Shown here piece after piece: positions 20,418-52,332 of a stretch of DNA of 64,000 nucleotides (positions are counted from its first letter, which is position 1; each line of letters starts with the position of its first letter). The notes beneath the pieces are model-generated. The model had not been told where the DNA came from. It searched no databases and saw only the letters and a program-made list of their open reading frames with translations. The translations under genes and the position numbers were made by a program. The DNA lies in IMG/VR virus record IMGVR_UViG_3300028591_000101, positions 64,001-128,000 of that record. The stretch is one strand, 5' to 3'. This DNA is from a virus. Lineage: Duplodnaviria; Caudoviricetes.

Positions 20418-20444
20418 GACTTTTATATGTGTCTGAATTATATT
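20416..20444 (+). promoter_or_regulatory. Class I promoter TTG-N20-TATATT driving the glycosyltransferase operon
   Basis: TTGACT...TATATT. Confidence 0.65.
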
Positions 20445-20461
20445 ATAAGAAAAGATTAGAA

Positions 20462-21175: not shown

Positions 21176-21177
21176 TT

Positions 21178-23195: not shown

Positions 23196-23197
23196 AT

Positions 23198-25753: not shown

Positions 25754-27715
25754 ATGGAAAAAGGAATATCATATCTGAATAGAACTTTTGATGATTACAA
25801 AAACGCCCTTAAGGATTATTCCAGGAAATATTACCCGGATATGGCGACCGAATATAGCGATGCTTCAATCGGTTCATGGCTCATAGATATTAATGCTGAT
25901 GTGGCCGACAATCTGTCATACCACATTGACAGGGTGTACCAGGAAACGAACATTGACAGTGCACAGGAGCCAAATTCCGTGATGAATATTGCCAGGAACA
26001 ACGGTGTAAAGATTCCGGGGCCTAAGGGTGCTATGGCGGAAGTTCGTTTTACGTGTCAAGTCCCAGTAGCTAATGATACATATGCAAAAGAATATCTTCC
26101 GGTAATCAAGAGGGGTACGATGGTCAATTCAAGTACCCAGATATTTGAGGTCATGTATGATGTCAACTTCGCTGAACAATACGACAGTTTCATGCGTAGT
26201 GACCGAACTATTGAGCCGGTGCTTGATGCTAACGGAAACGTTACGAAATATAACATCAGCAAGCTTGCAATTGTTACTGCTGGTGAAAGCCGTGTTTTTA
26301 AGAAAGCGATAAAGACCAGCGACCTTAAGCCGTTCATGGAAATAGTAATACCGGTTGAGGGCGTCATGAATGTTGAGAGTATCATAATGAAAGATGGTGA
26401 CGCACTCACTTCATATCCAAGCTATGGCGAGTTTTATTCTTATGAAGAACAAGTTACGCACGGGGATGAAATTTGCGAAGGCATGATTAGATTTTTTGAA
26501 GTTGAAAGCCTGGCCCAGCAGTTTAGATGGGGTGAAACTTTAAATAGGCATAATTGTCCTGAAGTTCATACATATGGTTATTATAATTCAAGCGAGAATG
26601 TGACATATCCGACTTGTCAGGTTACAAGGGGCGAATGGAAGCCAGTAAAGCATAAGTTTATAACTGAATACACCGACAACGGTTATCTTAAAGTTATATT
26701 TGGACCTGGCCTCAGAAGCGTTGATTATCCGGACATAACCGATATGGACGAATTCAGTAAGTATATAATTACAAAGACCATACGTAACGATTCACTTGGT
26801 GAGATGCCTAAGGCTGGCACGACAATATTCATTCTTTATCGTTCTGGTGGTGGAAGCGCAAGCAATGTGGCACAAGGGGCTATTTCTTCAATTTCAAGGC
26901 TTATGACGGATTTTCCTCTTGGACACGACGCAAACGAAGCCACAAAATCAGCCGTAAGAAGTTCAATCACTGTCGTTAATACCACACCTTCTGTTTCAGG
27001 TAAAGATATGCCTACTGTTCAGGAGATGAAATATATGGTCAAATATAATAAAGGTGCTCAAAACAGATGCGTTGTCGTAAAAGATTACATTGATAGAGTG
27101 CTTATGATGCCTCCTAAATATGGGACTCCGTTTAGGGTTGGCTGTGCAGAGGAAAACAATAAGATTATGCTTTACCTTCTTGGAATTGACTATCGTAAGA
27201 AGCTTGACGCTGCACTTCCTTCACTATTAGCCGAAAACATTCAGAACTATTTGACGGAATATAGGATGATAAATGATTTCGTTGAGATAAAGCCCGGCCG
27301 AATCATAAACCTGTCAGTTGAGGTTGAAGTTCATGTTGATAAAAATTATAACCTTAGTGACGTTGTTTCTTTGATTATAGCCAAGACAATGGACTATTTT
27401 GACATCAATAAGCGAAATATGGGCGATGACTTATATGTGGGTGACCTTAAAAAGGAAATTTCAAAGATTGACGGCGTTGCGAACCTTATTGAACTTAGGG
27501 TATACAATGAAACCGGTTCAGGGTACAGTTCAACGCCAACAAACCAAGAGCTGTTTTACGGTAGTGACTGTAACAGGGTCCAAGAAGAAAAGGTTCCTGG
27601 ACGAGATAGGATAGACCTTGAGGCGTCAGACGGAATCATATATAGTGATGGGGACACGATGCTTGAAATCAAATATCCAGAAAAAGATATAAGGGTAATG
27701 CCTAAATACATTTAG
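25754..27715 (+). CDS. Baseplate wedge protein, T4 gp6 / baseplate J-like
   Basis: YLNRTFDDYK, DNLSYHIDR..QETNIDSAQ, YRSGGGSASNV, AQNRCVVVKDY. Confidence 0.88.
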   Translation: MEKGISYLNRTFDDYKNALKDYSRKYYPDMATEYSDASIGSWLIDINADVADNLSYHIDRVYQETNIDSAQEPNSVMNIARNNGVKIPGPKGAMAEVRFTCQVPVANDTYAKEYLPVIKRGTMVNSSTQIFEVMYDVNFAEQYDSFMRSDRTIEPVLDANGNVTKYNISKLAIVTAGESRVFKKAIKTSDLKPFMEIVIPVEGVMNVESIIMKDGDALTSYPSYGEFYSYEEQVTHGDEICEGMIRFFEVESLAQQFRWGETLNRHNCPEVHTYGYYNSSENVTYPTCQVTRGEWKPVKHKFITEYTDNGYLKVIFGPGLRSVDYPDITDMDEFSKYIITKTIRNDSLGEMPKAGTTIFILYRSGGGSASNVAQGAISSISRLMTDFPLGHDANEATKSAVRSSITVVNTTPSVSGKDMPTVQEMKYMVKYNKGAQNRCVVVKDYIDRVLMMPPKYGTPFRVGCAEENNKIMLYLLGIDYRKKLDAALPSLLAENIQNYLTEYRMINDFVEIKPGRIINLSVEVEVHVDKNYNLSDVVSLIIAKTMDYFDINKRNMGDDLYVGDLKKEISKIDGVANLIELRVYNETGSGYSSTPTNQELFYGSDCNRVQEEKVPGRDRIDLEASDGIIYSDGDTMLEIKYPEKDIRVMPKYI

Positions 27716-27732: not shown

Positions 27733-28014
27733 ATGGCGTGTGCTTGTAAGATTAACCAAGACATAGAAAAAATACAAAAATATTATGCGTATAACGGAAA
27801 AGCCGGAAGCGAAACCAAACCGAAAATTACTATCAACAAGAGAGACGCGGTAATTACGATGCTGGCATATCTTGTTATACTTCCGTTTATACCAATCGTT
27901 TTTATTGGCTTAATCATCTTTTCTCTATTTTCAAAAGATAGAAAAATAAGCATGAGAAAAATTTTAGGTTTCATACACAATACAAGGAATGGCAAAACAC
28001 AACAAATCGTATAG
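27733..28014 (+). CDS. Small membrane protein
   Basis: Long hydrophobic segment AVITMLAYLVILPFIPIVFIGLIIFSLF. Confidence 0.65.
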   Translation: MACACKINQDIEKIQKYYAYNGKAGSETKPKITINKRDAVITMLAYLVILPFIPIVFIGLIIFSLFSKDRKISMRKILGFIHNTRNGKTQQIV

Positions 28015-31000
28015 AATAAGAACAACAGTTGGTCAAGAGGCTGATAGCTTTCTTGACGTACATCTTGACCAGGAATATGACAGTTTTGAAATTCTGTCAC
28101 TTAAAATCAGCGATAAGGACACCTATAGGCTACATAACGCTGATTATGGCGTTATTGTTGGAAGAGTGCTGGCAAATGGAAACTTTGGCGTTCCGAATGC
28201 CAAGGTAAGTGTTTTTATTCCGGCAGACGAGACAAATAAAGACCTTGAATTGTGGAATCTATATCCATATACGTCAACATCAACCCAAAATGACAAGAAT
28301 ATAAGGTATAATCTTTTACCGGACCAATCAGTAAAAGACTGCCACAAGGCCGTAGGAACATTCCCAAACAAGACATACTTGCTTGAAAATGACGGAATTC
28401 TTGAGATTTTTGACGAGTACTATATCTACACAACAAGGACGAATGATTCCGGAGACTACGTTATATGCGGTGTTCCAACTGGCATGCAGACTCTCCATAT
28501 GGACCTTGACCTATCAGATTGCGGCATTCTTTCACAGAGGCCGAGAGATTTCGTTTATAAGGGATATACAATTGAACAGTTTGATAATCCGAACCAATTC
28601 AAGAAGGACGAAAACATTGACAGCCTATCACAAATATTCAGTCAGAACCAGCCTGTTTATGTTTATCCATTCTGGGGAAATGAAGATAACGGTGACAATA
28701 TAGGGATTACCAGGGCCGACATTCAAATTTCATTCAAGTTTGAGCCGACATGCGTGTTCATGGGCAGTGCTATTTCGGACAATCCGTCCAACGGTGTTAG
28801 CAAAAAATGTGTTCCCACAAATCAAATGGGGACCATGGATGAGCTTACCGCTGGCGAAGGTACCATTGAGATGATACGCAAAACACCAGGAGGAAACGTT
28901 GAAGAATTTGCAATCAAAGGAAACCAGCTTATTAATGGAAATGGTGTCTGGTGCTATCAGATACCAATGAACCTTGATTATATGATGACCGATGAATACG
29001 GAAATATGGTTCCTACTGATGACCCTGAAAAAGGTATTCCGACAAGGGCGAGGGTTCGTTTCCGTGCATCACTTACCGACATGGAAAATAGCATACAAAG
29101 CTATTACAGGGCGAAGTATCTAATTCCGAACAATCCGGATATTGATAGTGAAAAGGTTGATTATAATTTTGGTACGTATACTGATGAAAGCTCTTATAGA
29201 GACTTGTTCTGGAATGGTGTATATACAGTCAAGTCATACATACCTCGTTTCCAAAAGTCAAAGAGATGGAGAAATGAAAGATTTTCTGGTATAAAGGCGT
29301 GTAATTATTATGGCGGAAACAATCCGATGCCATACAATAATATGCGCATTAAGCTGCCGTTCATGTTCACTGTCCTCTGCATTTTTGTTAAACTATTTAT
29401 AAAGCTTGTGACGCTTGTCAATAGAATTATCGCTGGTATAATAAAAGTTATAGCAGGCGTACTTGAGCTGTTTTTCCCAACAGTAAAGCTTATTGCGAGG
29501 GTCGTTAAATTTTTTAATTCAAAAGCCGGTGATTCTATATTAAATGCTGTTGATGGCATAGTTGCAAAATTTATTAATCCCGTCATAAGAAGATATGGGA
29601 TTCACTGTACGTTCATTGGTGACGGACTTTGTCCGGATATGGAAGGGTGGTATTTCGCTCCAGGATGTACGCTAGGGAAAAACAGGTTTAAATCAACAAC
29701 CAGAACTTTAATGGAAAATACACTGGCTGCAGCTGCTGGAACCGGAGAAAATCTTGAGGGCTTGGACGGAAGCCAAGACACACAGGACTCAATGAACTCT
29801 GGTGAATTTATTGATGAAACTTCCATTGATGTTCAGAATACGGCTTCAAGTGAGGAAGGGAGTGTATGCTTGACAAGAGATGTCAATTATCTGGTTAATT
29901 GCTTTGAAATGAATATTGCCCAAGAATATAGGGTTATTAAATTTGACTTCTATAATGACTGGGTAAATGGTGTTATATATTTTCCTAGATGGTTCAGAAA
30001 AATAAAGAGAAAGAAAAAGTATAGAATTTCCCTAAAGAAAGGGGATAAACTCATCACTTCTTATTATAAGGATAAGGTATTTGGTTGCATGAACTCTGAG
30101 ACTTCTCGCGTAAAGAAGTCCAGGTATTATACACAACAATGTTCTTTGCAATATACGGCTGAGACAAGTAATAGCCCGTGGTCAAAGATTGTAACCGAAC
30201 GGAATTGCTACAATACCCCTAAAACCAAGAAAAGAAACAGTGGAGTCAACATTATACCTGCGAAGTGTCACAAGAAGCAGGGTATGGACCAGTCAAGCAT
30301 TTTTGGAAAAAAATCCGGTCTTGTTACCGAAGAAACAACAATGCTCGGCCAGTTTGTGTATTACTTGAAGCCTTGTGAGTGGAAAGATACCAATAATGGA
30401 AGGGTTCGTACGCTGCTCTTTGCCACAGACATTGTCTTACTTGGTACTTTGAATGATTGTGACGAAAATGGTATACCACAAGCATTCAAATATCTGAACA
30501 ATTCATCTTATATCATGCCGACGAATCTGGCGTTGACTACGATGGATGACGATGCTTATATATATGCTGCAGGCGATGGAACAATATGCGCCTCAAAAAA
30601 TAAGCAGAGTCAGGGTGGTACGCCTCCGGAGCAAGAAGGTGTTAAGAGGATTACGCCAAATTATGAGTCAACATATAGCGCATATAGCAAGACTGATGGT
30701 GATGCAATTACATATGAAGAAAATGATGACCCGATTCCAGTAACGGAAGCGGCGGGTATAAACTGGAACTATTCAGGCCCTGGTCAAGACGATGTGGACT
30801 TAGGTAAGTTGGAAGATTCACAAAGTTTCCTGGCTCGTTTGTTCGGGGCTGGTAATAGAAGGTTTGACTTCCTTTATTATCCAGGAGGCCATTTTCTTGG
30901 TTTATCATGCACAAACAGCGAATCAAATATAAAATCATGTGTTAACCTCAAAAGAATTTGTGAGGTTGGCGCATCTATGTCTCAGAGAAGGGAAGAGGTG

Positions 31001-34000
31001 CGCGGTTACACTATTGAGGGTGACATAAAATATCGTTATTATGTTCCGACTGGCCTTATAAGTAACGTTGATATAGAAGGGGCTTCATTTAGGTCAATGT
31101 TCGCCACGCTTAATCATCACACTCTGAATGCGACTGAACGAAATGATGTTACGGGATATAAGAAATATAATTTCAGGTTTTTGCGCCCGGATGGATTTGA
31201 TGGTTCTTTGGGAAGCATTGTCCATCTTCCGAATTCGCCGTATAACAAAAAAGTAAATGATAGGGCTGAACATCATTACATAACCGATGCAACAAGTCTT
31301 TTTGAAAGATTGTTTATGGGCGCTTGGCAAAGACCAGATGATTATGACCCTAAGGAGATTGAATACACCGAAAGAAGAACTGTTGAAGACCAGATTGATG
31401 ACTATTTCATGTTTAGATTTGGCCTTGAAGGGTTTAGCAATAATGAACAGAGAAAGCACTTCTTATCAAAGAAGGGCCGTGGTTATATTTTCCCGCAGTA
31501 CGAAAATTCCTTCTATTTTTACTTCGGTCTAAAGGATGGTTCAACTGCGCTTGATGAATTTAAGAAACAATTCTTTAGCGAGTGTCAGTCAAACAACGTC
31601 ATGAAGGAGCCTTTAATCAACATAAATGAAACAATAGATAGCAATCTTAACGGAAAGGCGCTACTGACGATTGATAATATGATTCCGCCATATGAGATAA
31701 CTGTTATTGACAGCACGAGCGGTGATAAATTTGGCCCGAAAACATTTGAAATTGATACCATGCAGCTTGCTACAATAGTTGAGACTGGTTTATCAATTGG
31801 GCATGAATATGTTGTTACGGTTACGGATAGTATTGATAATTCATTAACTAAAAAGTTTGTTTTCGGTGCAGATGCCGTACAAATTGATGTGCAAACCGTT
31901 AATTTTAGGGTTCCAGCCACAGGTCCGACAAATACCCCGAATAAGGGTGGTTTCATTAAAATAAACCACAATCTTACTATTCTGAATAGCGGATATACTG
32001 TTGGAGATGGAGTTAGTTTTAAATTCAGAAAGGTTGAGAATGGTGTACCGGGACCGTACGAAACATATTCCGAAACAACGTACATTGATGCTGGTGGCGA
32101 AATGTGGCATCTATATTATGTGCCGTCCGTTGGTACATTTGAAGTGCTAGCGTATTATCACGATAACTATGTCTCTGTTTACACCACGAAGATTGAGGAT
32201 AATAGAACGGTAAACCTTTATGTTGCTTGCGATTATCTTTCATATAAGCCAGAATACAAGGGTGGTTCAGTCTATGCCCCCGCGTTTAATGGCGGTCTGA
32301 AGAACATATCAAATGCTGATTGGTATAATGGGGCCCCATTCCGTGGTTCTGGCTGGGAAAATTGGCTAATGCGTCATACATATTATCGCCAAACAGAAAA
32401 TGATGCCCTGTCCTATGACAATTATATTTACACGAAGGGTAAGTGTGATGTTGCCATCTTTGGCCAGCCGGAAAAGGGAGGTAGTGTTCCTGGGGCTAGT
32501 TTGAATGGAACAGGCGTTGATGCGCAAGGAAATACACCAAATAGTTATTCCAATGATTATGATGACTTCCCGGGCTATGTTGTAGACGATACATATACCT
32601 ATATACCCACAATGTACTTTAATCCATCAAATAAACTGGAACAAACTGGGGTGTTTAGGAATGCGTTTGACGCTATGTCTTATACCGAAGATGGGCGTGC
32701 GGCTGCAGATGCTCTTGACGCGAACATAACGTCATATAATTTTTCAGATGGAACCGTAACACTTGGTTTTTCTGGTGGAAATGGAAAATTGACGAATGGA
32801 CATGGTTGTATTGTTGTATTTGAGGACGGTACGATTATGTTCCCGGTTGTTCGGGGAGGAAATTTGGTTGCAAAGTATCCAACAGATATATACCCAGAAG
32901 GTCCTGCAACACAATTGCTTTCAATGGCAACAATTTATCCGACGTTGAGGATTCCTTCTGTATATAAGCCATTCTATGGGGAAATTTCCGCCGCTACATG
33001 GAGTCTTGTTGCTCTGTCGGTGTCGCCAAATGAAAATAATGAAACTGTTGCCTTAAGAAATAATTTACCGGCATCATATAAGGTTGAGGGTAATATTTTC
33101 AATGGTCTTACGTGGAATAATCATTTTTATTCTGGGGATACAGCTGGTGAATATGATACATATTTCATGTACAAGAACGACAGAAGATTTTATGATGCAC
33201 TGACAACAAACTCAAGCCTTGATTACGAATGTAAGAGGAAAATTACCCCTGATGGTAAGTTTGGTCAGGGTTCATGGATTGCTACCGGTTTTGCCTATGG
33301 GCGTGAAATAAGCGCATTTACTGATAGCGTTGTGGATATAAATCAAATCTCTTATGCTGTAAGGGAAGGAATACCACCGGAAGAAGCGATTAAGGCCTCT
33401 TATCCAAATGTATTTACTGAGAGGTATTTGGGTGGTTTTGACCATACATTACTGAAGGATAGTTGCTCTTTTGAAACGGCATTCTACGAAGACCTCGTCA
33501 TAAAGCTTTTTGACACTAACAGTGAAATGTCTGGACAATGGACCGTATATTCAGATGAAGGGGCTTTGGGCGCAGAAACCAAATATTATATTTCGTCCGC
33601 TGAGATATTTGACAGGTCTCAGTCGCCAATGGTCGTTGATGAAGCGTATGACAACGACAATAGCAACAGACAAAAATATTGTCACGGATATTATAATAAG
33701 AATGCAAAAAACGATAAAAAGGGCGAAATTGTTTCCGTAACATATAGAAATCCGCTAATCGGAAGCACCAGGTATGAATATTATATAACTAATGACAGTG
33801 GTGCTAGAGTCAAAGAAGAGGTGAGGCCAGCATCTGAGAGTGAATTATATAATGTTGGAATTACGTTACTGCACGGATATACCATAAAGCCAGTATTCGC
33901 TTTAAACTTGGATACTCTTTCATCCATTGTCAATGGAGGTCAAGAATTTGAGGTTTCAACAAAGGGAAAAATTAAGAATGTTTTCAGCGGAGAAAACCTC

Positions 34001-34480
34001 AAGACGATAGTTGCAGTTTATCAAAAGCCTGTTGATGGAACAAATAATAAAATGACCGTATATCGCTTGTATCCGATTGGCATGCTTCCTGTTGTTTATC
34101 CTGCAGGTACTGGTGGGGTTGAACCATATATTAATGCACCGTCGGCCTTGACCTACAATAAGGAACAGCAGTCGGTTGCGATACCTGTTTCAACCAATGT
34201 AACATTTAGGATTGAGGTTAGCTCTCAGGGAGGATGGATAACTTATAGAACTTCTGATTATGGCCCTACGAACAATTCAATAGTTGTTCATTTAGCCCTT
34301 AATGATACTGGAAGCGATAGGCGAGGAACAATAACATTAATATGTACCGATACAAACGTTGAACTTGACAATTTCACCATCACAATAACTCAGACAAAGG
34401 ATGAGTTAGCTGATATCCAGGGTGAGATTGACGAAATTAAGGACGACATACAGGAGTTAAGCGGTAGAACGGGCAACTAG
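27989..34480 (+). CDS. Giant (2163 aa) virion/tail-associated protein with an internal hydrophobic helix and a C-terminal BACON-like domain plus coiled coil
   Basis: N-terminal carboxypeptidase-regulatory-like beta-sandwich; hydrophobic stretch around aa 455-510; WIT...NDTGSDRRGTITL...ITITQ. Confidence 0.65.
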   Translation: MAKHNKSYRIRTTVGQEADSFLDVHLDQEYDSFEILSLKISDKDTYRLHNADYGVIVGRVLANGNFGVPNAKVSVFIPADETNKDLELWNLYPYTSTSTQNDKNIRYNLLPDQSVKDCHKAVGTFPNKTYLLENDGILEIFDEYYIYTTRTNDSGDYVICGVPTGMQTLHMDLDLSDCGILSQRPRDFVYKGYTIEQFDNPNQFKKDENIDSLSQIFSQNQPVYVYPFWGNEDNGDNIGITRADIQISFKFEPTCVFMGSAISDNPSNGVSKKCVPTNQMGTMDELTAGEGTIEMIRKTPGGNVEEFAIKGNQLINGNGVWCYQIPMNLDYMMTDEYGNMVPTDDPEKGIPTRARVRFRASLTDMENSIQSYYRAKYLIPNNPDIDSEKVDYNFGTYTDESSYRDLFWNGVYTVKSYIPRFQKSKRWRNERFSGIKACNYYGGNNPMPYNNMRIKLPFMFTVLCIFVKLFIKLVTLVNRIIAGIIKVIAGVLELFFPTVKLIARVVKFFNSKAGDSILNAVDGIVAKFINPVIRRYGIHCTFIGDGLCPDMEGWYFAPGCTLGKNRFKSTTRTLMENTLAAAAGTGENLEGLDGSQDTQDSMNSGEFIDETSIDVQNTASSEEGSVCLTRDVNYLVNCFEMNIAQEYRVIKFDFYNDWVNGVIYFPRWFRKIKRKKKYRISLKKGDKLITSYYKDKVFGCMNSETSRVKKSRYYTQQCSLQYTAETSNSPWSKIVTERNCYNTPKTKKRNSGVNIIPAKCHKKQGMDQSSIFGKKSGLVTEETTMLGQFVYYLKPCEWKDTNNGRVRTLLFATDIVLLGTLNDCDENGIPQAFKYLNNSSYIMPTNLALTTMDDDAYIYAAGDGTICASKNKQSQGGTPPEQEGVKRITPNYESTYSAYSKTDGDAITYEENDDPIPVTEAAGINWNYSGPGQDDVDLGKLEDSQSFLARLFGAGNRRFDFLYYPGGHFLGLSCTNSESNIKSCVNLKRICEVGASMSQRREEVRGYTIEGDIKYRYYVPTGLISNVDIEGASFRSMFATLNHHTLNATERNDVTGYKKYNFRFLRPDGFDGSLGSIVHLPNSPYNKKVNDRAEHHYITDATSLFERLFMGAWQRPDDYDPKEIEYTERRTVEDQIDDYFMFRFGLEGFSNNEQRKHFLSKKGRGYIFPQYENSFYFYFGLKDGSTALDEFKKQFFSECQSNNVMKEPLININETIDSNLNGKALLTIDNMIPPYEITVIDSTSGDKFGPKTFEIDTMQLATIVETGLSIGHEYVVTVTDSIDNSLTKKFVFGADAVQIDVQTVNFRVPATGPTNTPNKGGFIKINHNLTILNSGYTVGDGVSFKFRKVENGVPGPYETYSETTYIDAGGEMWHLYYVPSVGTFEVLAYYHDNYVSVYTTKIEDNRTVNLYVACDYLSYKPEYKGGSVYAPAFNGGLKNISNADWYNGAPFRGSGWENWLMRHTYYRQTENDALSYDNYIYTKGKCDVAIFGQPEKGGSVPGASLNGTGVDAQGNTPNSYSNDYDDFPGYVVDDTYTYIPTMYFNPSNKLEQTGVFRNAFDAMSYTEDGRAAADALDANITSYNFSDGTVTLGFSGGNGKLTNGHGCIVVFEDGTIMFPVVRGGNLVAKYPTDIYPEGPATQLLSMATIYPTLRIPSVYKPFYGEISAATWSLVALSVSPNENNETVALRNNLPASYKVEGNIFNGLTWNNHFYSGDTAGEYDTYFMYKNDRRFYDALTTNSSLDYECKRKITPDGKFGQGSWIATGFAYGREISAFTDSVVDINQISYAVREGIPPEEAIKASYPNVFTERYLGGFDHTLLKDSCSFETAFYEDLVIKLFDTNSEMSGQWTVYSDEGALGAETKYYISSAEIFDRSQSPMVVDEAYDNDNSNRQKYCHGYYNKNAKNDKKGEIVSVTYRNPLIGSTRYEYYITNDSGARVKEEVRPASESELYNVGITLLHGYTIKPVFALNLDTLSSIVNGGQEFEVSTKGKIKNVFSGENLKTIVAVYQKPVDGTNNKMTVYRLYPIGMLPVVYPAGTGGVEPYINAPSALTYNKEQQSVAIPVSTNVTFRIEVSSQGGWITYRTSDYGPTNNSIVVHLALNDTGSDRRGTITLICTDTNVELDNFTITITQTKDELADIQGEIDEIKDDIQELSGRTGN

Positions 34481-42400: not shown

Positions 42401-45400
42401 ATGGGAAGATTTATAACAACAAAAGCCGATTTCACATTACGCAGGAAGCATAAGAAGGGTTCCGGCGTGACGATTTATGAGAACGACTATACAACCATAA
42501 ATCCGATGCCGAACGCTCTTAAGGGCGAATACGTAATAGGCGATTCAAATTTTGTGTTCACGTCCAGACTCGGTATAAATGCCCAGAAAAAACATTCAAG
42601 GGGTAAATTTATACCGAACCCGAGCAATGTAACGGCAGATAATGGGGCGTGGACATTAGACAATATTATAGATAGCGGAATCAGTGAAGACACCAAAATC
42701 AGGCTTAAGCCAAACTATACGTCATTAAAAGATTTTGCGTTATATGGTTCTGCAATAAAGCTTATCCAGGGAACAGTTAATGGTATAATTACTGATTTCC
42801 CGGCGGAGTTATGGTTTTCAAAAGAAGAAATCAACATATATCCGTCTAACAATGGTGTTGGCTATTCATTTAATGAGTGGGATGAAGCAAACGACGAAGT
42901 ATGGGATACGGGTGTCACAAGTACCGAAAAACTATTATTCAATGAATACGGAATAGATATCCTGAGTAAGAATCTTCAGCCGAACAGTGTTTATAACCCA
43001 TTGAGATTTTTCTCCTTATGTGGTTCAAGCTATACATTGATTACTGTTGACGAGAGTGGTAAAACTACCGGAGAATACGAATTTACCGGATTTGAAGTAG
43101 AAGATACGTCTCTCGGCGAGTGTTATCAAGGTAAGAATGTTGAGGTTGACAAGATAGCCGTCATCAAAATGTTCTTCACTACAAAAGTAATCTTCATAAA
43201 CGTATATAAGGATTATACAGACGGGGTTGTCTATTATACATACGTACCAGGAGACATTGTTGACGTTGGTGTTATCGGCGATTTGGTCCAAAAGTTACCG
43301 GCTGGTACTGAGTTTGTTACCGTATACGGCAATTTAGTACAAGCGAATTCATCAAATACGATAAGCGTAAGGGTTCTCGCCGCGTTAGCTCAACAGAATG
43401 AAGGTGGTGAAGGAATAGGTGTTTCCGTAACGTTAACACAACAGCAAGCTGTACTTGGAGCAGTTCGCTCCCTCGTTTTTGGGGCCAATCCTCAGCAGCA
43501 GGAAAACCATGAGTTTGAAGAGCTTATAGGAGCACACATAAGGCCGAAAGAGAAATTGATTGAGGAATATTTCCGTACATGTGATGATTTCACAGCTGTA
43601 CTTCTTGAGCGTTCAACCAAGCCGATTTATAAGGCAGTATTTGAAACGCCAAAAGAAGTTGAAACGGGGTATTCATATACGATGGAAAGTTATATCTGGC
43701 CTTCACTCAATGGCGGATATAACCCAGACCTTTCTGGTCCATATTATACGTATTTGGAATCATTGATGAACCTCGCCGAATATTATGACGACTTTTTCAG
43801 TGATAATATGTGGAGGTCACTCACCCATGAAGCAATAAAGACCCTTGATTGGACTTACACTTCAAACAAAAATGGCGAGATTGAAGAGTTAGAGCAGATA
43901 GACACGTCAAGGATTGAGCCGATTGTAAAATTGTATGGTCGTCAGTTTGATGACCTGAAACGCTATATTGATGGAATAAAGAGAATCAATACGGTCACCT
44001 ATAACCAAAAGGCCAATACGCCAGACTATCATCTGACAGACCTTCTGGAAATTTCAGGGTGGGAGACAAAAATAATCAAACTTACCGGAAACAAAGACCT
44101 GATAACGGATTCACTATATCCAGCGCTCACATCCGGTTATACTGAAAGTGACGCAAGCAATGAATTTTTGCGTCGTTTGAAGCTTAACTCAAGATATCTT
44201 TTCTCAATAAAGGGTACGAGGGGTGGATTAGATGCAATGCTTGGCCTGTTAGGTTTTAAGCCAAATGAATATGATATACATGAATATATCTATGTTGTAA
44301 GTGGAAGAAGCAGCCAATATACAAAATTCTGCAGTGATACTAAAAACTTACCAGTTGAGGATTTGCCAGCATTTCCTCTCGCAAAGGATGTTTCAACGAT
44401 AAACAAGTACAAGATAAATTTTAATATCAATGACCCATATGGGGAGTATTGCGGTATACCGGTCGCAGAAGTTGGTTATTTCGTTGAGGATGCTTCCGCC
44501 CCAAATGGGTTCTGGGATTATTCCTATGTAATTCCTTGGTATTCACAAAAGAAGAAATATGATGACGGCCTTTATTTCCAGATGAATGGTGGCTGGGGAA
44601 ATAGAAAACGTAAAAAGATAGACCTTGGAATTGCCCCGAATGTTAAGGAAATAACGGAAACCGATACTGTAAAAATTTATGGCGAGACACAAGCCAGAAT
44701 GAGATTTGCAAAGGATTTTGACGAGCTTTTGCAACAGGCTTATGCTTCATCAAAGCTTCGTGATGTAATCTATGTGACTGACATATCAAAAATTGAAACA
44801 GCTTATACGAAGGGTATTGGTGAGGTGCTTTCTGACGCGTCGCACTATTTTGTACTTGAGGATAAGAACTTGTATCAGTTCCTAGGATACAATAGTGCAT
44901 CAAGAACCTACGGATGGCGAAGCATAAGGAACAGTGAAATACAAACCCCGAATTCTGCCGGAACGCTGGTGTTATATCTTGAATCAATAAAAGATGACAC
45001 GACCGGGAATAACCCACATGTAGGAAATGGATTGTATGATGGCGGCGCCTCTTATGTAGAAAGTATTACGGATATTTTTGGGTATTCATTGATTAACCAT
45101 AATTTCATGGGGATAGACGACAAATCATGTGATAAAATCAGAAAGTATACTTTTGACAAAGTAAGACAGGAAGACAATCGAAAATGTTGGTTCTTTTCTG
45201 ATGATTACAACACGAGCAGGGGTAAATACGGAGAAAGGATAACTTTAAAAGAGGTTGAAGTTACAAGTGGAAGATGTGATGATTCTGTTTTCTATGACCC
45301 AGAATCTGCCCTAGGGGATAACGGCACAACAAATATAAACCAGGACTTAAATATAGGTGTTGATGCTAGGCCACATTTTAAGGAGGATACGGTTGAAGTA

Positions 45401-46255
45401 TATACAAGAGGCAGTTATGCATCAGCTTTCAATCCGGAGCCAAATGGGGCAATAAACGGGGAAGCTGCTGCAAATTCAATAGTCAATGTCAAAAACATGG
45501 TAATCAATTTTAATCTTGAAGCCATGGAACTAAGCTCTTTGAGTGGGCAAATGATTGATTACATTGATGAGATTGTTATTCCGTATTTGACACAAATGAT
45601 ACCGTCAACAACAATTTTATCGTGGTCATTTAATGGGGATAATGGTGGTGGTAGTACAACAAGAAGATACTTGGCATTAACACCGCCATCGTCAACGGCG
45701 TTAAATTCTGAAACGATAAAACTTACTCCGATTCTTCATACCGTAGTTGGTGGTGTAGAAACGACAAGCGTGGTCGGCACAAATGCATGGAGAAGTAGCA
45801 ATCCACAGATAATGGTTGCACGGGGAATATGTAGTACGAACGCTAATGAACAGGTTACAGCAACAATAACCGCAACATACGATGGGTTGTCTGCATCAGC
45901 ACATGTAACATTTGTTCCAGACACACAAAAAGTTGATGTTGAGATTTTAGGGCTGCTTGAACAGAAGAACGATGAGAATGTTTTTGTACTTGTAACGGGA
46001 GCCTTAACACAGAACCAGAGTATATCAATTAACGATGAAGAGATATATGTTGATGGTGAACTTGAGCAAGAGGCATCCACCGACCCAGAGCCAGAAGCTG
46101 AGATTTTTGTTGAAGGTGTTTTGGTTCAGGAGGATGATTGGCCTGAACCGGAAGAGGAGATTTACGTTGAAGGCGATTTGACTCAGGAAGAAGACCCTAC
46201 TGAGGTGGAAAATATTAATGTAAACGGAACGTTAACCCAAGTTAATGGGAATTAA
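42401..46255 (+). CDS. Baseplate wedge protein (gp7 / P2 gpI-like core) with an Ig-like domain and beta-strand repeat tails
   Basis: LLEISGW...FLRRL..NSRYLFSIKGTRGGLDAMLGLLG gpI-like motif; Big_2-like WRSSNP...TITATYDG; ten [VI]x[VI]xGxLxQ-type repeats. Confidence 0.65.
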   Translation: MGRFITTKADFTLRRKHKKGSGVTIYENDYTTINPMPNALKGEYVIGDSNFVFTSRLGINAQKKHSRGKFIPNPSNVTADNGAWTLDNIIDSGISEDTKIRLKPNYTSLKDFALYGSAIKLIQGTVNGIITDFPAELWFSKEEINIYPSNNGVGYSFNEWDEANDEVWDTGVTSTEKLLFNEYGIDILSKNLQPNSVYNPLRFFSLCGSSYTLITVDESGKTTGEYEFTGFEVEDTSLGECYQGKNVEVDKIAVIKMFFTTKVIFINVYKDYTDGVVYYTYVPGDIVDVGVIGDLVQKLPAGTEFVTVYGNLVQANSSNTISVRVLAALAQQNEGGEGIGVSVTLTQQQAVLGAVRSLVFGANPQQQENHEFEELIGAHIRPKEKLIEEYFRTCDDFTAVLLERSTKPIYKAVFETPKEVETGYSYTMESYIWPSLNGGYNPDLSGPYYTYLESLMNLAEYYDDFFSDNMWRSLTHEAIKTLDWTYTSNKNGEIEELEQIDTSRIEPIVKLYGRQFDDLKRYIDGIKRINTVTYNQKANTPDYHLTDLLEISGWETKIIKLTGNKDLITDSLYPALTSGYTESDASNEFLRRLKLNSRYLFSIKGTRGGLDAMLGLLGFKPNEYDIHEYIYVVSGRSSQYTKFCSDTKNLPVEDLPAFPLAKDVSTINKYKINFNINDPYGEYCGIPVAEVGYFVEDASAPNGFWDYSYVIPWYSQKKKYDDGLYFQMNGGWGNRKRKKIDLGIAPNVKEITETDTVKIYGETQARMRFAKDFDELLQQAYASSKLRDVIYVTDISKIETAYTKGIGEVLSDASHYFVLEDKNLYQFLGYNSASRTYGWRSIRNSEIQTPNSAGTLVLYLESIKDDTTGNNPHVGNGLYDGGASYVESITDIFGYSLINHNFMGIDDKSCDKIRKYTFDKVRQEDNRKCWFFSDDYNTSRGKYGERITLKEVEVTSGRCDDSVFYDPESALGDNGTTNINQDLNIGVDARPHFKEDTVEVYTRGSYASAFNPEPNGAINGEAAANSIVNVKNMVINFNLEAMELSSLSGQMIDYIDEIVIPYLTQMIPSTTILSWSFNGDNGGGSTTRRYLALTPPSSTALNSETIKLTPILHTVVGGVETTSVVGTNAWRSSNPQIMVARGICSTNANEQVTATITATYDGLSASAHVTFVPDTQKVDVEILGLLEQKNDENVFVLVTGALTQNQSISINDEEIYVDGELEQEASTDPEPEAEIFVEGVLVQEDDWPEPEEEIYVEGDLTQEEDPTEVENINVNGTLTQVNGN
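43256..43444 (+). repeat. Four internal [VI]xVx(G)xLxQ peptide repeats
   Basis: VGVIGDLVQ, VTVYGNLVQ, VRVLAALAQ, IGVSVTLTQ. Confidence 0.75.
45932..46240 (+). repeat. Six C-terminal [VI]x[VI]xGxLxQ peptide repeats with acidic/Pro linkers
   Basis: VEILGLLEQ, VLVTGALTQ, IYVDGELEQ, IFVEGVLVQ, IYVEGDLTQ, INVNGTLTQ. Confidence 0.9.
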
Positions 46256-46256
46256 A

Positions 46257-46266
46257 AATATTTATA
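46257..46266 (+). promoter_or_regulatory. Class II motif variant AATATTTATA
   Basis: 20 nt before ATG 46287. Confidence 0.55.
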
Positions 46267-46286
46267 AGATATAAAAAGAGATAAAA

Positions 46287-48176
46287 ATGGCATCATCTTT
46301 ATCACAAAACAGGCAAGGAAAATGGAAATTGGCGATTAAACATAGCAAGGCTGGCGTGACCATCCCTGCTAAGTTTACATATAATGGAATTCCGGTAGCA
46401 TTCAGTATGACAAGTACGAAGAAAGAGATTGATACGGGATGGCGGACAGAACTCGGCACTTCTATTGATTTCTTAAATGAAGTTACTAGGGAATACACCC
46501 CGGTAACGAAAGATGGAATAAGATACATCGTCCACAAACCGGAAAATATGAGTATTATTCCATACCCGACAGGTGATGATAGTGGGGATACGCCATATCT
46601 TACCACAGAACTTCATCCGAGCACAGTAGAATCTGGTGGAGGCCAGGTTAGTTTAATTATTTCAAGTAACGTCTCATGGGAAATTAGTGACGATGCCGGT
46701 TATTTGTCGTATAGTAAAACGCAAGGCTCAAATACTGATACAGTAACAATAGGGGTTCCAGCATATACAAATACTGGAACGGACAGGACAATTGTCATTA
46801 CAGTTATTGGCTCGAACGGTTCAACTGACCAACAAATGATAACGCAGAAAAAAGCTTACGATGATGGTGGGGGAGACGACCCAGGACCAGGTCCAGATGA
46901 CCCAGGAACTGATGCAGACTACACTCTAAGCATCACTACAGGTGGATACAGGTCAAGCGGTAGTTATTGCCCTGGTTTGAGAGGGCTTTTTGCTGACAGT
47001 AAGCTTACAAGCGAGGAAAGAGAAGATATTAAGATAGACCCGACATCTTGGGTTGTAACGAAGAGACGGTTCAATCAGTCATCCTCGGCGGTTACGGTCG
47101 TCGTAAGTAACTCTGTAAACGATTCGGATAGAGATGGTTGTGAGTTTTGGATTTGTAGTGAACGTTACGATGGCGTTGTTGAAATACACAATGGGAACGG
47201 AAGATTAAATATACACGGGTACGGTTTCAAGAACAATATTGTCAATGACGGCTATTCTCTCTTGTATATAAATATTTCTGCAACGACTATGGGTGGAAAG
47301 CATGTAAGTACCCAGATATCACTTAAAGGTAAAGAATACTCGTTTATTGACGACGGGCAGTCCGAACCTTCTGTCTGTCCTCAAACCGGTGGAGTCCTGG
47401 AGTATACATTCTGGTACGATAATATTGATGAGAGCACCTTTGGGTATACGGATTTGTCCGCCGGGATTTCAGACATCACGCTTATTTCAAGCGGTATACC
47501 TTATTCTAACCCAGCGGCCGGGACTTCGTACTATCAAGGTAAACTGGCTGTGACTCTTACGGCAAACCAGGCTAGTTCGTCTGAGGGTTATGAGGGCTCT
47601 CGGTACAAGTATTTTACGATAACAGGGATGTCTACGTTGGATACCACAGAAGAACACTCTTGTAGGTGCATGGTAGTACAAGAGCCTTACTCGTATGCTA
47701 GTTTCCCTTATAGTAACACCTCTGAATATGATACATATGACCCAAATACGTCTAGTGGTTTGTTAATAATTCCTTTAAGCGGTCTTAATATAAATAATTT
47801 TACTTATAGATTTTGTGACCACCTTTCAACTAAGACTAGGCCTATTTACATTGATGATGATGCTACAATAGAAACTGTAGTCAAGGAAGACAATACGACG
47901 TATAATAACGAAATTACATTCAGTGAAGCAATACCTATCAGTCTGGAGTATGGCTCTGTTATAATCAATGGCAAACAGATAAATGGTTATTACCTAACAA
48001 TTGAGAACCAAGCGTGGAGAATATACGATACTCATGGAGGTAAACTTATCGAATTAACGTTCTATGATAATGCCGGAAATTCTTGGAAAGATGGTTTATG
48101 TATAGAGAAATCTTGGAGGGAAGATGGGTCAGTATCATATATAACCTACCGTGGATATTCACACGGTTGGTATTGA
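46287..48176 (+). CDS. BACON/Ig-domain virion adhesin
   Basis: ISSNVSWEI...TNTGTDRTIVITV...MITQ BACON pattern; DDPGPGPDDP linker; N-terminal domain shared with the next gene. Confidence 0.7.
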   Translation: MASSLSQNRQGKWKLAIKHSKAGVTIPAKFTYNGIPVAFSMTSTKKEIDTGWRTELGTSIDFLNEVTREYTPVTKDGIRYIVHKPENMSIIPYPTGDDSGDTPYLTTELHPSTVESGGGQVSLIISSNVSWEISDDAGYLSYSKTQGSNTDTVTIGVPAYTNTGTDRTIVITVIGSNGSTDQQMITQKKAYDDGGGDDPGPGPDDPGTDADYTLSITTGGYRSSGSYCPGLRGLFADSKLTSEEREDIKIDPTSWVVTKRRFNQSSSAVTVVVSNSVNDSDRDGCEFWICSERYDGVVEIHNGNGRLNIHGYGFKNNIVNDGYSLLYINISATTMGGKHVSTQISLKGKEYSFIDDGQSEPSVCPQTGGVLEYTFWYDNIDESTFGYTDLSAGISDITLISSGIPYSNPAAGTSYYQGKLAVTLTANQASSSEGYEGSRYKYFTITGMSTLDTTEEHSCRCMVVQEPYSYASFPYSNTSEYDTYDPNTSSGLLIIPLSGLNINNFTYRFCDHLSTKTRPIYIDDDATIETVVKEDNTTYNNEITFSEAIPISLEYGSVIINGKQINGYYLTIENQAWRIYDTHGGKLIELTFYDNAGNSWKDGLCIEKSWREDGSVSYITYRGYSHGWY

Positions 48177-48238
48177 TTTTTGCCAAGCAATATTGACTAA
48201 AAAGAAAGCGAATAAATAAACGATAATATAACTAATAC

Positions 48239-51200
48239 ATGGCAGTAAATTCAAACGCATTAACGCAGAATGCCCAAGGTAGGTGGGATTTAACATTGAA
48301 GCACGACAAGTCTAATGTTAATTTGCAAATCCCGGCAAGACTTACATATGATGGCATACAAGTGTCAACGACGATAACGAACGTTGAAAAAACTATCAAT
48401 ACAGATTGGTACACCGAACTTGGCGTTCCAATTAATCCGGACGATATTGATAAGTACGCACAACCAGTAACCAAGGATGGGAAAACTTACATTGTAACTG
48501 GATGGTCATTTGATGTTGAGCCGTACGATGATTCTGGCACAACAGCTGAAACCATATATAGTGTGGAAGTTCTTCCAAAAACGGCGTCAATCGCATCCAA
48601 TGGACACGTTTCCCTTACGTCATACTATGTTGGAAAGCAGGGTGATACAGAAGTTAACCGCATAAATGTTACTAATGTCGCAACATGGTCCAGCAACAAT
48701 AATTATGTCATCGTCAATGGGGGCTCAGTATCCGGAAACAATACGAGTTCATCAACGACCAGGTCTTCCAGAGTTACAGCAGCGTACTCCGGAAAATCGG
48801 GGTATTGCGACGTTACTGTGGGCAAGGCCAGTGGTTCAACGGTAACATATCAATTGGTTGTGAATCCGGCCAGCATGACTATTCCATACAACGGCTCGGA
48901 GCAATTGACGGCGAAATTCTATACAATTACAGATGGACACCCGGATGAAGGTGTGGATGTTACCAGAAATCCGAACTGCATGTGGACCAGTTCTGACAGC
49001 TCACACGCAACTGTAAGTAGTAACGGTATTGTATCTGGTCATAATGACTCTAGTGTCACTCAGGATGTTACAGCAAGAATCACCGCCACATATAATCAGA
49101 CATCAGGAGCGTGCCAGGTAACAGTTACAAAGAGTGGTGGTGAAACTGGCGTAACCACATACGAGCTTAGTATTTCAGCAACCCCATCCAGTATTGCCTG
49201 GAGTGGAAGTTCTTGGCTTACGGCTGAATATGTAACACTCGTTGATGGACATGTAACATCAAGGGTCCCTGTTTCGCCTGAAAATGTTGCTTGGACGGTT
49301 ACGAAGAACCCTGGTTATGGCACAATAAACGCCACGACCGGAGAATTTGTGGCGAACAACCAATCATTAAGCGGTACCAATAGAGAAATTAAAATTAAGG
49401 GTACTTATAGCGGTCTTACAAGCAATGAAGTGGCAATACAAGTTAGCAAGAGACCGGCAGAGGAAACAACTTATAAGCTTGAGGTTGTTCCGTCAGGAGA
49501 ACACATCGGGTCAGCAGATACGATAGACCTCCAGGCATGGTTCTATACATATGAAGCTGGGTCATTGGAACCAACGGAAAGTTTGAACGTAACGGAATTT
49601 GCGGATTGTACATGGACATCCGACAAATATGATGTTGCAACAGTTTCCGCTGGACACGTTGTATCAGATAACCAAACTTATGCCGAACAAATCGTGTTCA
49701 TTACAGCAAGTTATTGCGGATATACCGATGATGCTTCGGTTGTTGTTGCCCCGAAGGAAGGAGAAGCACCAGAATATTACTATGCGCTTGTCGTCGTTCC
49801 AACAGCTGCCACTCTTGAATACAGCGGTTTTACACAACTTCAGGCTGAATTCAGAACCTATGAAGGGAGTAACCCAAATCCTGTAACAACAGAAGTGGTA
49901 ACGACAGGGTGCCAATGGTCCACAAACAACCAATTGGTTTATGTAGACAATGATTTGAACAAGGGTTTGGTACAAAGCTATGTATACGATTCAGCTGGAA
50001 CCGAGGCGGATATCACTGCAGTCTATGTAAGGGCATATAGCTCATTTACGGGAACATCACGTGTAACTGTAAATGGCAAATTTATTGATTTTGATATTGA
50101 CACAACTCCAATTTCGGTTGTGTGCGAGAATCAATTTAGTGTGACAAGGCAAATTACTACAACAGATGATGTCACCTGGCACGCATCGGTTGTTGATGTT
50201 GAACACATAGGAACTGAAATTGATTGGGTAACAGTGTCTCCAGAAAATGGAAGCGGAAGCGGTATTCTAAATATCAGTGTAGTAAAGGAAAACAGTGGAA
50301 GCACCACAAGGGATTGTTTTGTTTGGGTACACTATCCGGCCGATTCACTTGTCAAGAAAGAGATAACAGTCACACAATATCCAACCCCTAGACTTATTGT
50401 TACTGAACAGTCAGTAACCGCGCCGCAGCTTGGGTCAACGGAAAGCGTATTTGTAAGTACGAATTATAATATTTCAGCTGATACAAACGGGAATGATTGG
50501 ATAACATTGAATATTTCTAGGGCCAACGGTGGTTTTAATTTGGAAATAACAACCACTGAAACAAGCGCGGAAAGAAGTGGTGTTGTCTATGTTGAAAGTC
50601 TTTACAGCGGAGATTGCACGTCGTTTGAGCGTGTACCAATAACCGTCAGCCAGGAATACATGCCACCGGTACCACCAGACCCTACTGGGTATGTATATTT
50701 CTATGCAAGCGAAACCGCAGAAACACCATCAGCACCGCTAGAAATTAGCAGGTCTGCAGCAGAAGCGGATGTCGAATTCTGGATTAGTACATCTATTGAA
50801 ACCAGGATAACAGGTGTTAGTGGCGAAGGCATCACAGTCAGAGAAACCAATGGTCTTGATTTAACATCAGGTGCAACAATATCTGCGACCGGGCTTGATA
50901 ACAGAAGAAAACTTATTGCACACATTCCAAAGCATTATGACATTGCAAACAGCAGAAATTTTGTGGTGCGTTTCAAGACCACGTACAATCAATCGTCAAA
51001 TAACGCAGTATTAGTTATTCAACAACGTGCTAACCATTACTACGACGATGATGTGGTCATTAAGTTCTTCAACATTGAGAGTCAGGACATCGGGCAAGAA
51101 GAGGTTACAATCAATTCTGGGGAACACTTTATTAAACCATATGTTTATATAGAGAGCAATCGCCGCTATGAGAATGGTGACGTGGAGGTGCATAGGATGG

Positions 51201-51814
51201 TTGACTATATTGACAATTCTGGCGTTATTGATGACAAAATTGGACTTAATTTTAGTGGGTTTACCCCAATTGTAAGTACAGACGTTGGGCATGGTGGCGC
51301 TTATGTGCCATCGTTAGATAATCCTTATGAACTCTATTTTTCGCCAAATCAGGGTTATAATCCAACCGGTGAAACAAGAGACACTATTATGCAGCTTGTA
51401 TATAAGGGAACAGTTCCTTGGGTCACAAAAGATATTAAAGTTCATCAGTTGTATTCCCAGAAAGAGCTTGACCCGGTTAACATGCACCTTTTGTCCGGTT
51501 CATCCCATATTCCAGTTGACAATGCTAGCGCAATAACTACCCCTAACGGAGTCATAATAGTTGAGCCTGGTTCCGGAAGCTTATATGTGCAAGGTGAAAC
51601 TGGCGTAACACTTATAATTGGCGGAGAGTACGGAAAATTTACGGTTGGCGGAGATATGCAGTATGCTGAACCATACGATTTGGGTAGCAACAATGGTAAG
51701 GCAATATATTTGACGAATAATGCTCCATCCGGAAGCCATTACGCCATAACGATAAATTGCTCAAAACCGGATAGGGCTGTTAAAGTTATTGTAATTGACG
51801 TAACAGTTCAATAA
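48239..51814 (+). CDS. Multi-Ig (Big_2 x~5) and BACON-domain virion adhesin/fibre
   Basis: Repeated L.V.P...L.A.F...DVT...W.S...V..G.V...ITA.Y units, followed by BACON-like WVTVSP...ENSGSTTR...ITVTQ units. Confidence 0.8.
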   Translation: MAVNSNALTQNAQGRWDLTLKHDKSNVNLQIPARLTYDGIQVSTTITNVEKTINTDWYTELGVPINPDDIDKYAQPVTKDGKTYIVTGWSFDVEPYDDSGTTAETIYSVEVLPKTASIASNGHVSLTSYYVGKQGDTEVNRINVTNVATWSSNNNYVIVNGGSVSGNNTSSSTTRSSRVTAAYSGKSGYCDVTVGKASGSTVTYQLVVNPASMTIPYNGSEQLTAKFYTITDGHPDEGVDVTRNPNCMWTSSDSSHATVSSNGIVSGHNDSSVTQDVTARITATYNQTSGACQVTVTKSGGETGVTTYELSISATPSSIAWSGSSWLTAEYVTLVDGHVTSRVPVSPENVAWTVTKNPGYGTINATTGEFVANNQSLSGTNREIKIKGTYSGLTSNEVAIQVSKRPAEETTYKLEVVPSGEHIGSADTIDLQAWFYTYEAGSLEPTESLNVTEFADCTWTSDKYDVATVSAGHVVSDNQTYAEQIVFITASYCGYTDDASVVVAPKEGEAPEYYYALVVVPTAATLEYSGFTQLQAEFRTYEGSNPNPVTTEVVTTGCQWSTNNQLVYVDNDLNKGLVQSYVYDSAGTEADITAVYVRAYSSFTGTSRVTVNGKFIDFDIDTTPISVVCENQFSVTRQITTTDDVTWHASVVDVEHIGTEIDWVTVSPENGSGSGILNISVVKENSGSTTRDCFVWVHYPADSLVKKEITVTQYPTPRLIVTEQSVTAPQLGSTESVFVSTNYNISADTNGNDWITLNISRANGGFNLEITTTETSAERSGVVYVESLYSGDCTSFERVPITVSQEYMPPVPPDPTGYVYFYASETAETPSAPLEISRSAAEADVEFWISTSIETRITGVSGEGITVRETNGLDLTSGATISATGLDNRRKLIAHIPKHYDIANSRNFVVRFKTTYNQSSNNAVLVIQQRANHYYDDDVVIKFFNIESQDIGQEEVTINSGEHFIKPYVYIESNRRYENGDVEVHRMVDYIDNSGVIDDKIGLNFSGFTPIVSTDVGHGGAYVPSLDNPYELYFSPNQGYNPTGETRDTIMQLVYKGTVPWVTKDIKVHQLYSQKELDPVNMHLLSGSSHIPVDNASAITTPNGVIIVEPGSGSLYVQGETGVTLIIGGEYGKFTVGGDMQYAEPYDLGSNNGKAIYLTNNAPSGSHYAITINCSKPDRAVKVIVIDVTVQ

Positions 51815-51954: not shown

Positions 51955-52332
51955 ATGTCTAATCAACAACAATTTCGAAATTTTATGATTAAGGGCGCCA
52001 TCTGGATTGCTGTCATCTGCACAATCGTTGTTGCAGCATGCGGGCTCATTTGGGGTTCAATCATTGAGGGTTCACTCATCGCTGAAATCGCAAAATATGC
52101 GGTTGGGAATCTCGCCATTATCGTCATCCTTGAATCTTTTTGGTATACTCTCGGACAGTTCCTTTTTCACTGGTCCGACGACTATAAGGAGAAGTACGGC
52201 AAGGGATGGTTCTGGAAGGGAATCAAGGAAGACCTCAAGAATCTCAGAACCGAAGTCAATTGGTGGAAAGTTATTCTTATCTATGTAATTTTCTTCGGTG
52301 TCTTTGGTTTGCTTATCTGGATTCTTCCTTAA
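51955..52332 (+). CDS. Three-TM membrane protein
   Basis: Three hydrophobic segments in 125 aa. Confidence 0.75.
   Translation: MSNQQQFRNFMIKGAIWIAVICTIVVAACGLIWGSIIEGSLIAEIAKYAVGNLAIIVILESFWYTLGQFLFHWSDDYKEKYGKGWFWKGIKEDLKNLRTEVNWWKVILIYVIFFGVFGLLIWILP

Follow-up and report, generated by a model that had tools for sequence, protein, structure and literature searches.

Tandem nine-residue strands on a putative baseplate scaffold as candidate docking sites for phage adhesins that share an N-terminal domain

Here, we analyzed the tail module of a large, uncultured myovirus of the gut or rumen (Duplodnaviria; Caudoviricetes), as contained in positions 64,001 to 128,000 of the IMG/VR record IMGVR_UViG_3300028591_000101 (a stretch of 64,000 nucleotides, hereafter the window, lying on a contig of 154,402 bp). 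Our results favor a model where a protein of 1284 residues (the scaffold; 42401..46255, plus strand) carries arrays of a nine-residue β-strand motif, which dock by strand insertion the ~95-residue N-terminal domain (N-domain) shared by the two fibers, or adhesins, encoded directly downstream (46287..48176 and 48239..51814, both plus strand). We regard such docking as probable; the attachment design is well supported by comparison and by modeling, and all of this support is computational. The motif is conserved throughout the scaffold family, the domains of the two fibers are paralogous, motif and domain co-occur among related loci, and adaptor as well as fused forms of the module are found in relatives.

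A sequence-only reading of this DNA had reported ten copies of the motif, [VI]x[VI]xGxLxQ, and all ten are present: four in an internal insert (43256..43444) and six at 45932-46240, within an acidic, Pro-linked C-terminal tail (45932..46252). The insert copies occupy residues 289-297 (43265-43291), 306-314 (43316-43342), 323-331 (43367-43393), and 339-347 (43415-43441) of the scaffold; the tail copies occupy residues 1180-1188 (45938-45964), 1196-1204 (45986-46012), 1215-1223 (46043-46069), 1235-1243 (46103-46129), 1254-1262 (46160-46186), and 1272-1280 (46214-46240). Eight of them match the strict form in a regular-expression search (starting at residues 289, 306, 1180, 1196, 1215, 1235, 1254, and 1272), and two copies of the insert, VRVLAALAQ (residues 323-331) and IGVSVTLTQ (residues 339-347), lack the Gly, again as had been read. 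By our own estimate from residue frequencies, a protein of such length should contain ~0.004 strict matches. None occurs in the other 525 open reading frames (ORFs) of at least 60 residues on the contig, and a looser form of the nine-mer is found at 0.11 per 1000 residues in the other ORFs of related loci. The motif regions display no tandem repeat at the DNA level; the pattern is therefore kept at the protein level, and its conservation without any such repeat led us to reject a chance or low-complexity origin.

The same arrangement is seen across the family. We retrieved 234 scaffold homologues from metagenomes, with conserved synteny, and in these the motif occurs at the same two places, before a conserved ...HIRPK... 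block and after the end of the core (...PYLTQMIPST...). Copy number ranges from 0 to more than 20 overall (0-6 at the insert site and from 0 to at least 18 in the tail), with a period of 16-20 residues and spacers that are acidic, Pro-rich, or of low complexity and extend from 6 to ~90 residues; in a homologue 66% identical to the scaffold (P0008, residues 330-410), a spacer of ~90 residues between the insert copies is made of (GDTSGSTS)n. A profile anchored on the Gln of 25 repeat-type tails gave hydrophobic residues at frequencies of 0.68, 0.74, and 0.73 at positions -8, -6, and -2, respectively, and Gly at 0.66 at position -4, against ~0.3 (0.29-0.45) for hydrophobic residues and 0.10 for Gly at the same positions in the homologue cores; the general form of the motif is φ-x-φ-x-G-x-φ-x-Q, where φ is hydrophobic. 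An AlphaFold2 (AF2) model of scaffold residues 1-1200, built on 70 homologues (mean predicted local distance difference test score, pLDDT, 69.8), has confident cores at residues 110-287 and 372-1080; the insert (residues 288-371) has a pLDDT of 27-36 and no predicted secondary structure.

The second element of the proposed system, the N-domain, had likewise been read as a pair of paralogous domains opening the two genes downstream of the scaffold, and this we could substantiate: the two share 41-44% identity over ~100-127 residues (BLASTP E 4e-19). In fiber 1 (629 residues) the domain spans residues 1-98 (46287..46580; hidden Markov model, HMM, E 2e-33) and is modeled as an all-β fold (AF2 pLDDT 91.4), and in fiber 2 (1191 residues) it spans residues 7-102 (48257..48544; BLASTP, and HMM E 1e-32). 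The whole-genome search for further copies that the earlier reading had suggested, made with HMM and BLASTP, detected no third N-domain in the 154,402-bp contig. The divergent BACON/Big_2 arrays proposed for the remainder of the two fibers stand only in part. A BACON domain (PF13004) is clear in fiber 2 (residues 661-714; 50219-50380; E 1.4e-11, 44.6 bits against a cut-off of 25, scanned as a segment), but the match in fiber 1 (residues 130-186; 46674-46844; E 3.6e-4, 20.9 bits) lies under that cut-off, and the Big_2 matches are weak (E 0.007-0.013).

A profile of 17 N-domain copies, searched among 1.84 billion proteins, recovered 109 cluster representatives, in proteins of 63-1618 residues where the domain almost always sits at the extreme N-terminus, a placement expected of an anchor and which, as far as sequence tells, marks the N-domain as an anchor family. 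Most members (88/110) begin with M-x-x-φ-x-Q-x3-G-x-W, that is, with half a motif, and 11/110 have no such first strand (e.g. MAKQGRW...). In the model of the N-domain monomer, residues 2-7 (SSLSQ) form a strand followed by a four-residue turn. Structure searches with this model returned no specific relative: Foldseek gave no match to the Protein Data Bank (PDB) at E ≤1e-3 (the pilin CfaB ranked 34th, with a template modeling score, TM, of 0.15), the best Z in a wide VIA-align search was 5.9, among generic FN3/Ig sandwiches, and an Atlas shape search reached a TM of at most 0.58, without a specific fold assignment. Two proteins, P0124 and P0216, depart from the N-terminal rule, with ~490 residues of BACON-like arrays ahead of the N-domain (from about residue 500). 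The former has two tandem N-domains (approximately residues 498-585 and 599-690), each after a φ-x-φ-x-Q strand, and the latter a single matched stretch (residues 507-601).

Do motif and N-domain travel together? Both features were scorable in 86 loci, all distinct and complete, drawn from IMG/VR, metagenomes, metagenome-assembled genomes (MAGs), and exact-protein look-ups. Both are present in 20 and both absent in 62, leaving four exceptions, each of which has an explanation; the co-occurrence across related phages on which the earlier reading depended is thus what we found. Three of the exceptions are near-identical proteins with one motif match in the core region, probably by chance (the one-match "motifs" of L050 and of L098/L099/L107, all in core regions, were counted as probable chance), and in the fourth, L058, a scaffold devoid of the motif accompanies a fiber that has VTVYGRFVQ in cis. 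The two features are jointly present in two distant clades, that of the window and that of L011/L020 (35-37% identity), and they vanish together inside the window's clade. Some relatives lacking the motif (P0041, P0046, and P0059) have no fiber gene at all, and in others (L008, L010, and L014) arrays of Ig domains are fused directly to the C-terminus of the tail protein.

Further variants combine the two elements in other ways. Six small proteins (P0165, P0169, P0173, P0146, P0200, and P0133), here termed adaptors, are built from an N-domain, in some cases with an Ig domain as well, and bear one to three copies of the motif at a C-terminal end styled like the scaffold tail (e.g. ...YTAYGELTQKDS). 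One of them, P0133, sits in the six-fiber locus L011. This locus, on a 363-kb IMG/VR contig (L011:13397-23126), holds at least six consecutive N-domain genes, of 537, 163, 853, 388, 830, and more than 372 residues, the 163-residue product being the adaptor with C-terminal motif copies, and its scaffold is 35% identical to that of the window. Stand-alone N-domain proteins of 95 residues are encoded between scaffold and long fiber at L001:14275-14562 and L057:13647-13934; they adjoin the scaffolds richest in motif copies (21 in L001 and 10 in L057) and might serve to cap or occupy docking sites left free. In L058, where insert and tail are both missing from the scaffold homologue, the fiber (L058:13088-18520; 1810 residues) carries a basic extension of ~30 residues together with the full motif VTVYGRFVQ, which is immediately followed by the G-K-W at the start of the N-domain. 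The cis motif thereby occupies the position of the first strand of the domain.

We modeled the complex of fiber 1 residues 1-102 with scaffold residues 1225-1284 in three runs, with three controls and our own alignment. The interface score ipSAE was 0.63 (0.11, 0.64, and 0.63 in the individual runs), against 0.00 for the best control; that mark is reached by 58/80 solved complexes and 2/110 mismatched pairs, counts that are rough since our own alignment was used. At least 92% of the contacts agree between runs, with a partner pLDDT of at least 46. Within the scaffold segment, residues 1230-1246 are ordered and contact two stretches of the domain, residues 9-21 and 77-93. Here the motif (residues 1237-1243) lies between domain residues 12-19, to which it is antiparallel, and 89-92, to which it is parallel, with Q1243 beside residues 12-13. 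Of the three motif copies in the modeled segment only that at residues 1235-1243 is ordered, and it lies against the domain. The earlier reading had expected an open groove filled by the strand; in the model of the fiber 1 domain one motif is indeed inserted as a strand, between the first and the last strands, but no obviously open groove is seen. The half-motif at the N-termini of the family, the cis case of L058, and the modeled geometry suggest that the motif substitutes for the first strand of the domain.

From these observations, we infer physical binding, a strand-exchange geometry, a stoichiometry, and a location of the scaffold in the virion as follows. The scaffold would be a peripheral component of a contractile-tail baseplate. 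Its two flexible regions, the internal loop and the C-terminal tail, would display nine-residue strands in tandem, with acidic or Pro-rich spacers between them, and every strand would act as a docking site for the β-sandwich N-domain of the downstream fibers. The inserted motif would pair antiparallel with domain strand 12-19 and parallel with the last strand, 89-92, replacing the short first strand (M-x-x-φ-x-Q). In the fibers of the window this would amount to donor-strand exchange, and in relatives without a first strand to plain donor-strand complementation. Because the docking sites are generic and repeated, loading would be interchangeable, and different adhesins, N-domain-only proteins, and adaptors could be loaded and exchanged with the baseplate unchanged. 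The core of the sequence-only reading, that each motif completes or binds the shared N-domain so that adhesins plug into the scaffold, is upheld by computation (the co-occurrence, the fused and fiber-less relatives, the adaptors, the cis case, the complex model, and the disordered insert), but the filling of a groove in the fibers of the window is not. A wider version, a phage "fibrosome" in which adhesins, N-domain-only proteins, and adaptors assemble hierarchically on donor-strand arrays by donor-strand exchange, yielding a combinatorial adhesin set that is altered by swapping fiber genes or by changing repeat number, we put forward more tentatively, at slightly less than an even chance; it would represent the first case of a viral assembly system working by donor-strand exchange to be described.

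Several results weigh against docking by strand insertion. The co-occurrence corresponds to only ~4-6 independent transitions: on a tree built by hmmalign to the core profile and FastTree, with 79 metagenome loci added, 5-6 independent pairs gave a mean of 3.5 differences in the same direction, 0 in the opposite direction, and 1.5 without difference, and the sign test (p 0.125-0.25) was underpowered. The earlier suggestion that motif copy number tracks the number of N-domain genes fails, the ratios being 10:2 in the window and 21:2, 10:2, 8:2, 7:1, 4:1-2, 3:1, 2:2, 1:1, and ~8 to at least 6 in relatives. One site per fiber gene is therefore not the rule; N-domain genes never outnumber the copies, and the surplus could reflect multivalent binding of oligomeric fibers or filling by N-domain-only proteins. 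As to the complex, ipSAE is the model's own confidence, one of the three runs scored 0.11, and the fold of the partner is uncertain; the motif may have been placed by its likeness to the domain's own first strand, in which case the model would speak for compatibility and not for binding. Finally, the N-domain of the window's fibers is by itself a complete and confident fold (pLDDT 91.4), with no obvious open groove. Since this domain folds complete with a short first strand of its own, strand exchange is likelier than simple complementation.

Other explanations of the arrays deserve consideration. The motif copies might fold together, for instance in a trimer, into a β-spiral or β-helix shaft or spacer. 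The N-domain would then attach either to this shaft or elsewhere on the baseplate, and inheritance as one module would account for the co-occurrence. The regular period of 16-20 residues and a strand-Gly-strand pattern reminiscent of fiber shaft repeats agree with such a structure, as do the strands drawn by AF2 at scaffold residues 1178-1199, though with a pLDDT below 50. Yet, the spacers, from 6 to ~90 residues long and of varied composition, are too variable, making a solenoid unlikely, and copy number goes from 1 to more than 20, with a single copy sufficing in many one-fiber relatives. The motif is also found singly at adaptor ends, and in cis as the first strand of the domain. Folding of the repeats among themselves, which the earlier reading had named as an outcome that would speak against docking, is not what the models, with one scaffold chain each, predict: the insert is modeled as disordered, and the one copy ordered in the complex run lay against the domain. 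Altogether, we consider a shaft unlikely. The motifs could instead be short linear elements unrelated to docking, such as protease sites cut after the Gln, cross-linking sites, or ligands of host or mucus, with the fiber N-termini sharing a recognition signal. The Gln is invariant and stands beside exposed acidic linkers, and the same φ-x-Q is present at the very N-terminus of most fibers; however, in none of the loci examined is a protease or a transglutaminase associated with the module, and this explanation accounts neither for the loss or fusion of fibers in relatives lacking the motif, nor for the adaptor architecture, nor for the replacement of the first strand in cis, so that its chances appear small.

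A neutral origin, in which the repeats are a low-complexity expansion of a flexible linker and the co-occurrence is a lineage effect, draws on the rapid shifts in copy number, even between proteins 85-99% identical, and on a phylogenetically corrected test that did not reach significance. Nevertheless, four positions are conserved across lineages only 35% identical without a DNA repeat, the pattern is found at two distinct sites as well as in unrelated adaptor proteins, and loss of the motif coincides with fiber loss or fusion; we judge a neutral origin highly improbable.

Docking by strand insertion, the reading we prefer, shares features with three described kinds of assembly. The nearest described system is the docking of secondary receptor-binding proteins (RBPs) through a branching domain and a conserved peptide. 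In the branched RBP systems of Klebsiella and Escherichia phages (KP32, K11, KP34, K1-5, G7C, and CBA120), a T4gp10-like branching domain on RBP1 is paired with a conserved N-terminal docking peptide on RBP2, and this peptide is necessary and transferable (PMC13352976). Common to both, on our model, is the modular attachment of exchangeable RBPs, in which a small structural domain would hold a short and conserved peptide, with adaptor layers possible. Polarity, on the other hand, is reversed, with the peptide on the scaffold and a folded domain of ~95 residues on the incoming fiber; the peptide is repeated in tandem, its copies numbering from 1 to more than 20, and is predicted to insert as a strand; and the acceptor is a β-sandwich without a specific structural match. 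No T4gp10-like (XD2/XD3) domain was matched in the scaffold or the fibers by Pfam or PHROGs, nor, with the AF2 model of the scaffold, by Foldseek against the PDB.

The predicted geometry recalls donor-strand systems. In chaperone-usher pili, a donor strand completes the β-sandwich of the neighboring pilin subunit, and TasA fibers are reportedly joined by donor-strand exchange (PMC9674648). As in these, an alternating-hydrophobic strand is predicted to complete or replace the edge strand of a β-sandwich in another polypeptide, and here too some members of the acceptor family lack a strand of their own and one, that of L058, has the donor in cis. Unlike in chaperone-usher pili, identical subunits do not polymerize, a single scaffold presents the whole array of putative donors where a pilus has one in each subunit, it is the first strand and not the C-terminal G strand that would be replaced, and no sequence or fold relationship exists; genes for a periplasmic chaperone and an outer-membrane usher are absent from the window and the related loci. 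Like the scaffoldin of cellulosomes, with its cohesin-dockerin pairs, the proposed module has one scaffold with many generic sites, cargo with a common docking module, and adaptors with both module types, but the repeated sites are nine-residue strands as opposed to cohesin domains of ~140 residues, and the cargo module is a β-sandwich as opposed to a Ca-binding dockerin. Pfam matched neither cohesin nor dockerin in the scaffold or the fibers, and a cohesin reached a Z of 4.8 in the structure search, among generic sandwiches. In the full-text literature we found no description of phage tail fibers docked by donor strands or strand complementation.

Phage RBPs attach via conserved N-terminal anchors, through contacts between folded domains or through one docking peptide on the incoming protein. 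What would be new here is a scaffold with many generic nine-residue sockets and a cargo with the folded acceptor, accompanied by adaptors and by fused and cis variants that document a possible evolution of such a system. If the model holds, donor-strand exchange would join the repertoire of virus assembly, and the diversification of BACON/Ig adhesins in large gut and rumen myoviruses would be explained. A further outcome would be a tag-and-domain pair, portable and very small, with which foreign binding modules could be loaded on phage tails or proteins assembled more generally.

With regard to the scaffold itself, it is the last conserved structural gene ahead of the variable fibers, an order kept in all relatives examined; a programmed fusion of scaffold and fiber 1 was considered and ruled out, since the gap and the frame between them vary among relatives. 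We describe it as a baseplate-peripheral scaffold, a location suggested by gene position. No family match was found in Pfam, PHROGs, or NCBIfam, and none in a profile search of PDB sequences, in tblastn against 50,697 phage records, in a feature-based search of the ESM Atlas, or, with the AF2 model (pLDDT 69.8), by Foldseek against the PDB; BFVD returned only uncharacterized proteins of uncultured Myoviridae/Caudovirales. Between the conserved core and the tail, AF2 strands of low confidence outline an Ig-like (Big_2-like) domain (approximately residues 1090-1176; 45668..45928, plus strand), with weak aBig_2/SlpA_N matches and present in the closest homologues only.

The start of the baseplate module is marked by a gp25/GPW-like wedge gene (25339-25728, plus strand; PF04965 E 8e-9, 35.6 bits, above cut-off) and a baseplate-J-like gene (25754-27715, plus strand; TIGR02243 E 5e-13, below cut-off). 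Next after the latter comes an ORF of 2163 residues (27989-34480), which ends in a BACON domain (residues 2076-2135). The label "gpI/gp7-like" earlier given to the scaffold is not borne out: Pfam, PHROGs, NCBIfam, the PDB profile search, and Foldseek against the PDB yielded no sequence or fold match, with the proviso that remote homology may escape such searches, and the positional gp7/gpI slot, directly after the gp25/W and gp6/J genes, is occupied by the 2163-residue ORF, the scaffold being six genes further on.

The surroundings of the module offered some additional observations. Just upstream of the baseplate genes lie four genes of glycosyltransferase type (20429-24949; DUF5672, GT4, GT92-like, and GT92-like fused to DUF4422). 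Directly after the fiber genes, a hydrophobic protein of 125 residues (51955-52332), with a weak DUF2512 match, occurs at the same position in most close relatives, including L054 and L059, which have no fiber gene; possibly it is holin-like or a membrane protein, and the tail module may end with it. In L059, the region downstream of the tail module is syntenic apart from the insertion of an IS605 OrfB/TnpB (Cas12f-like) gene (L059:18372-19568). A scan of genome collections added four loci with the module (L063-L066), in rumen and faecal MAG bins; their labels (proteobacterium, Bacteroidales, Clostridiales, and Bacilli) disagree and are therefore probably binning artefacts, which carry no host information.

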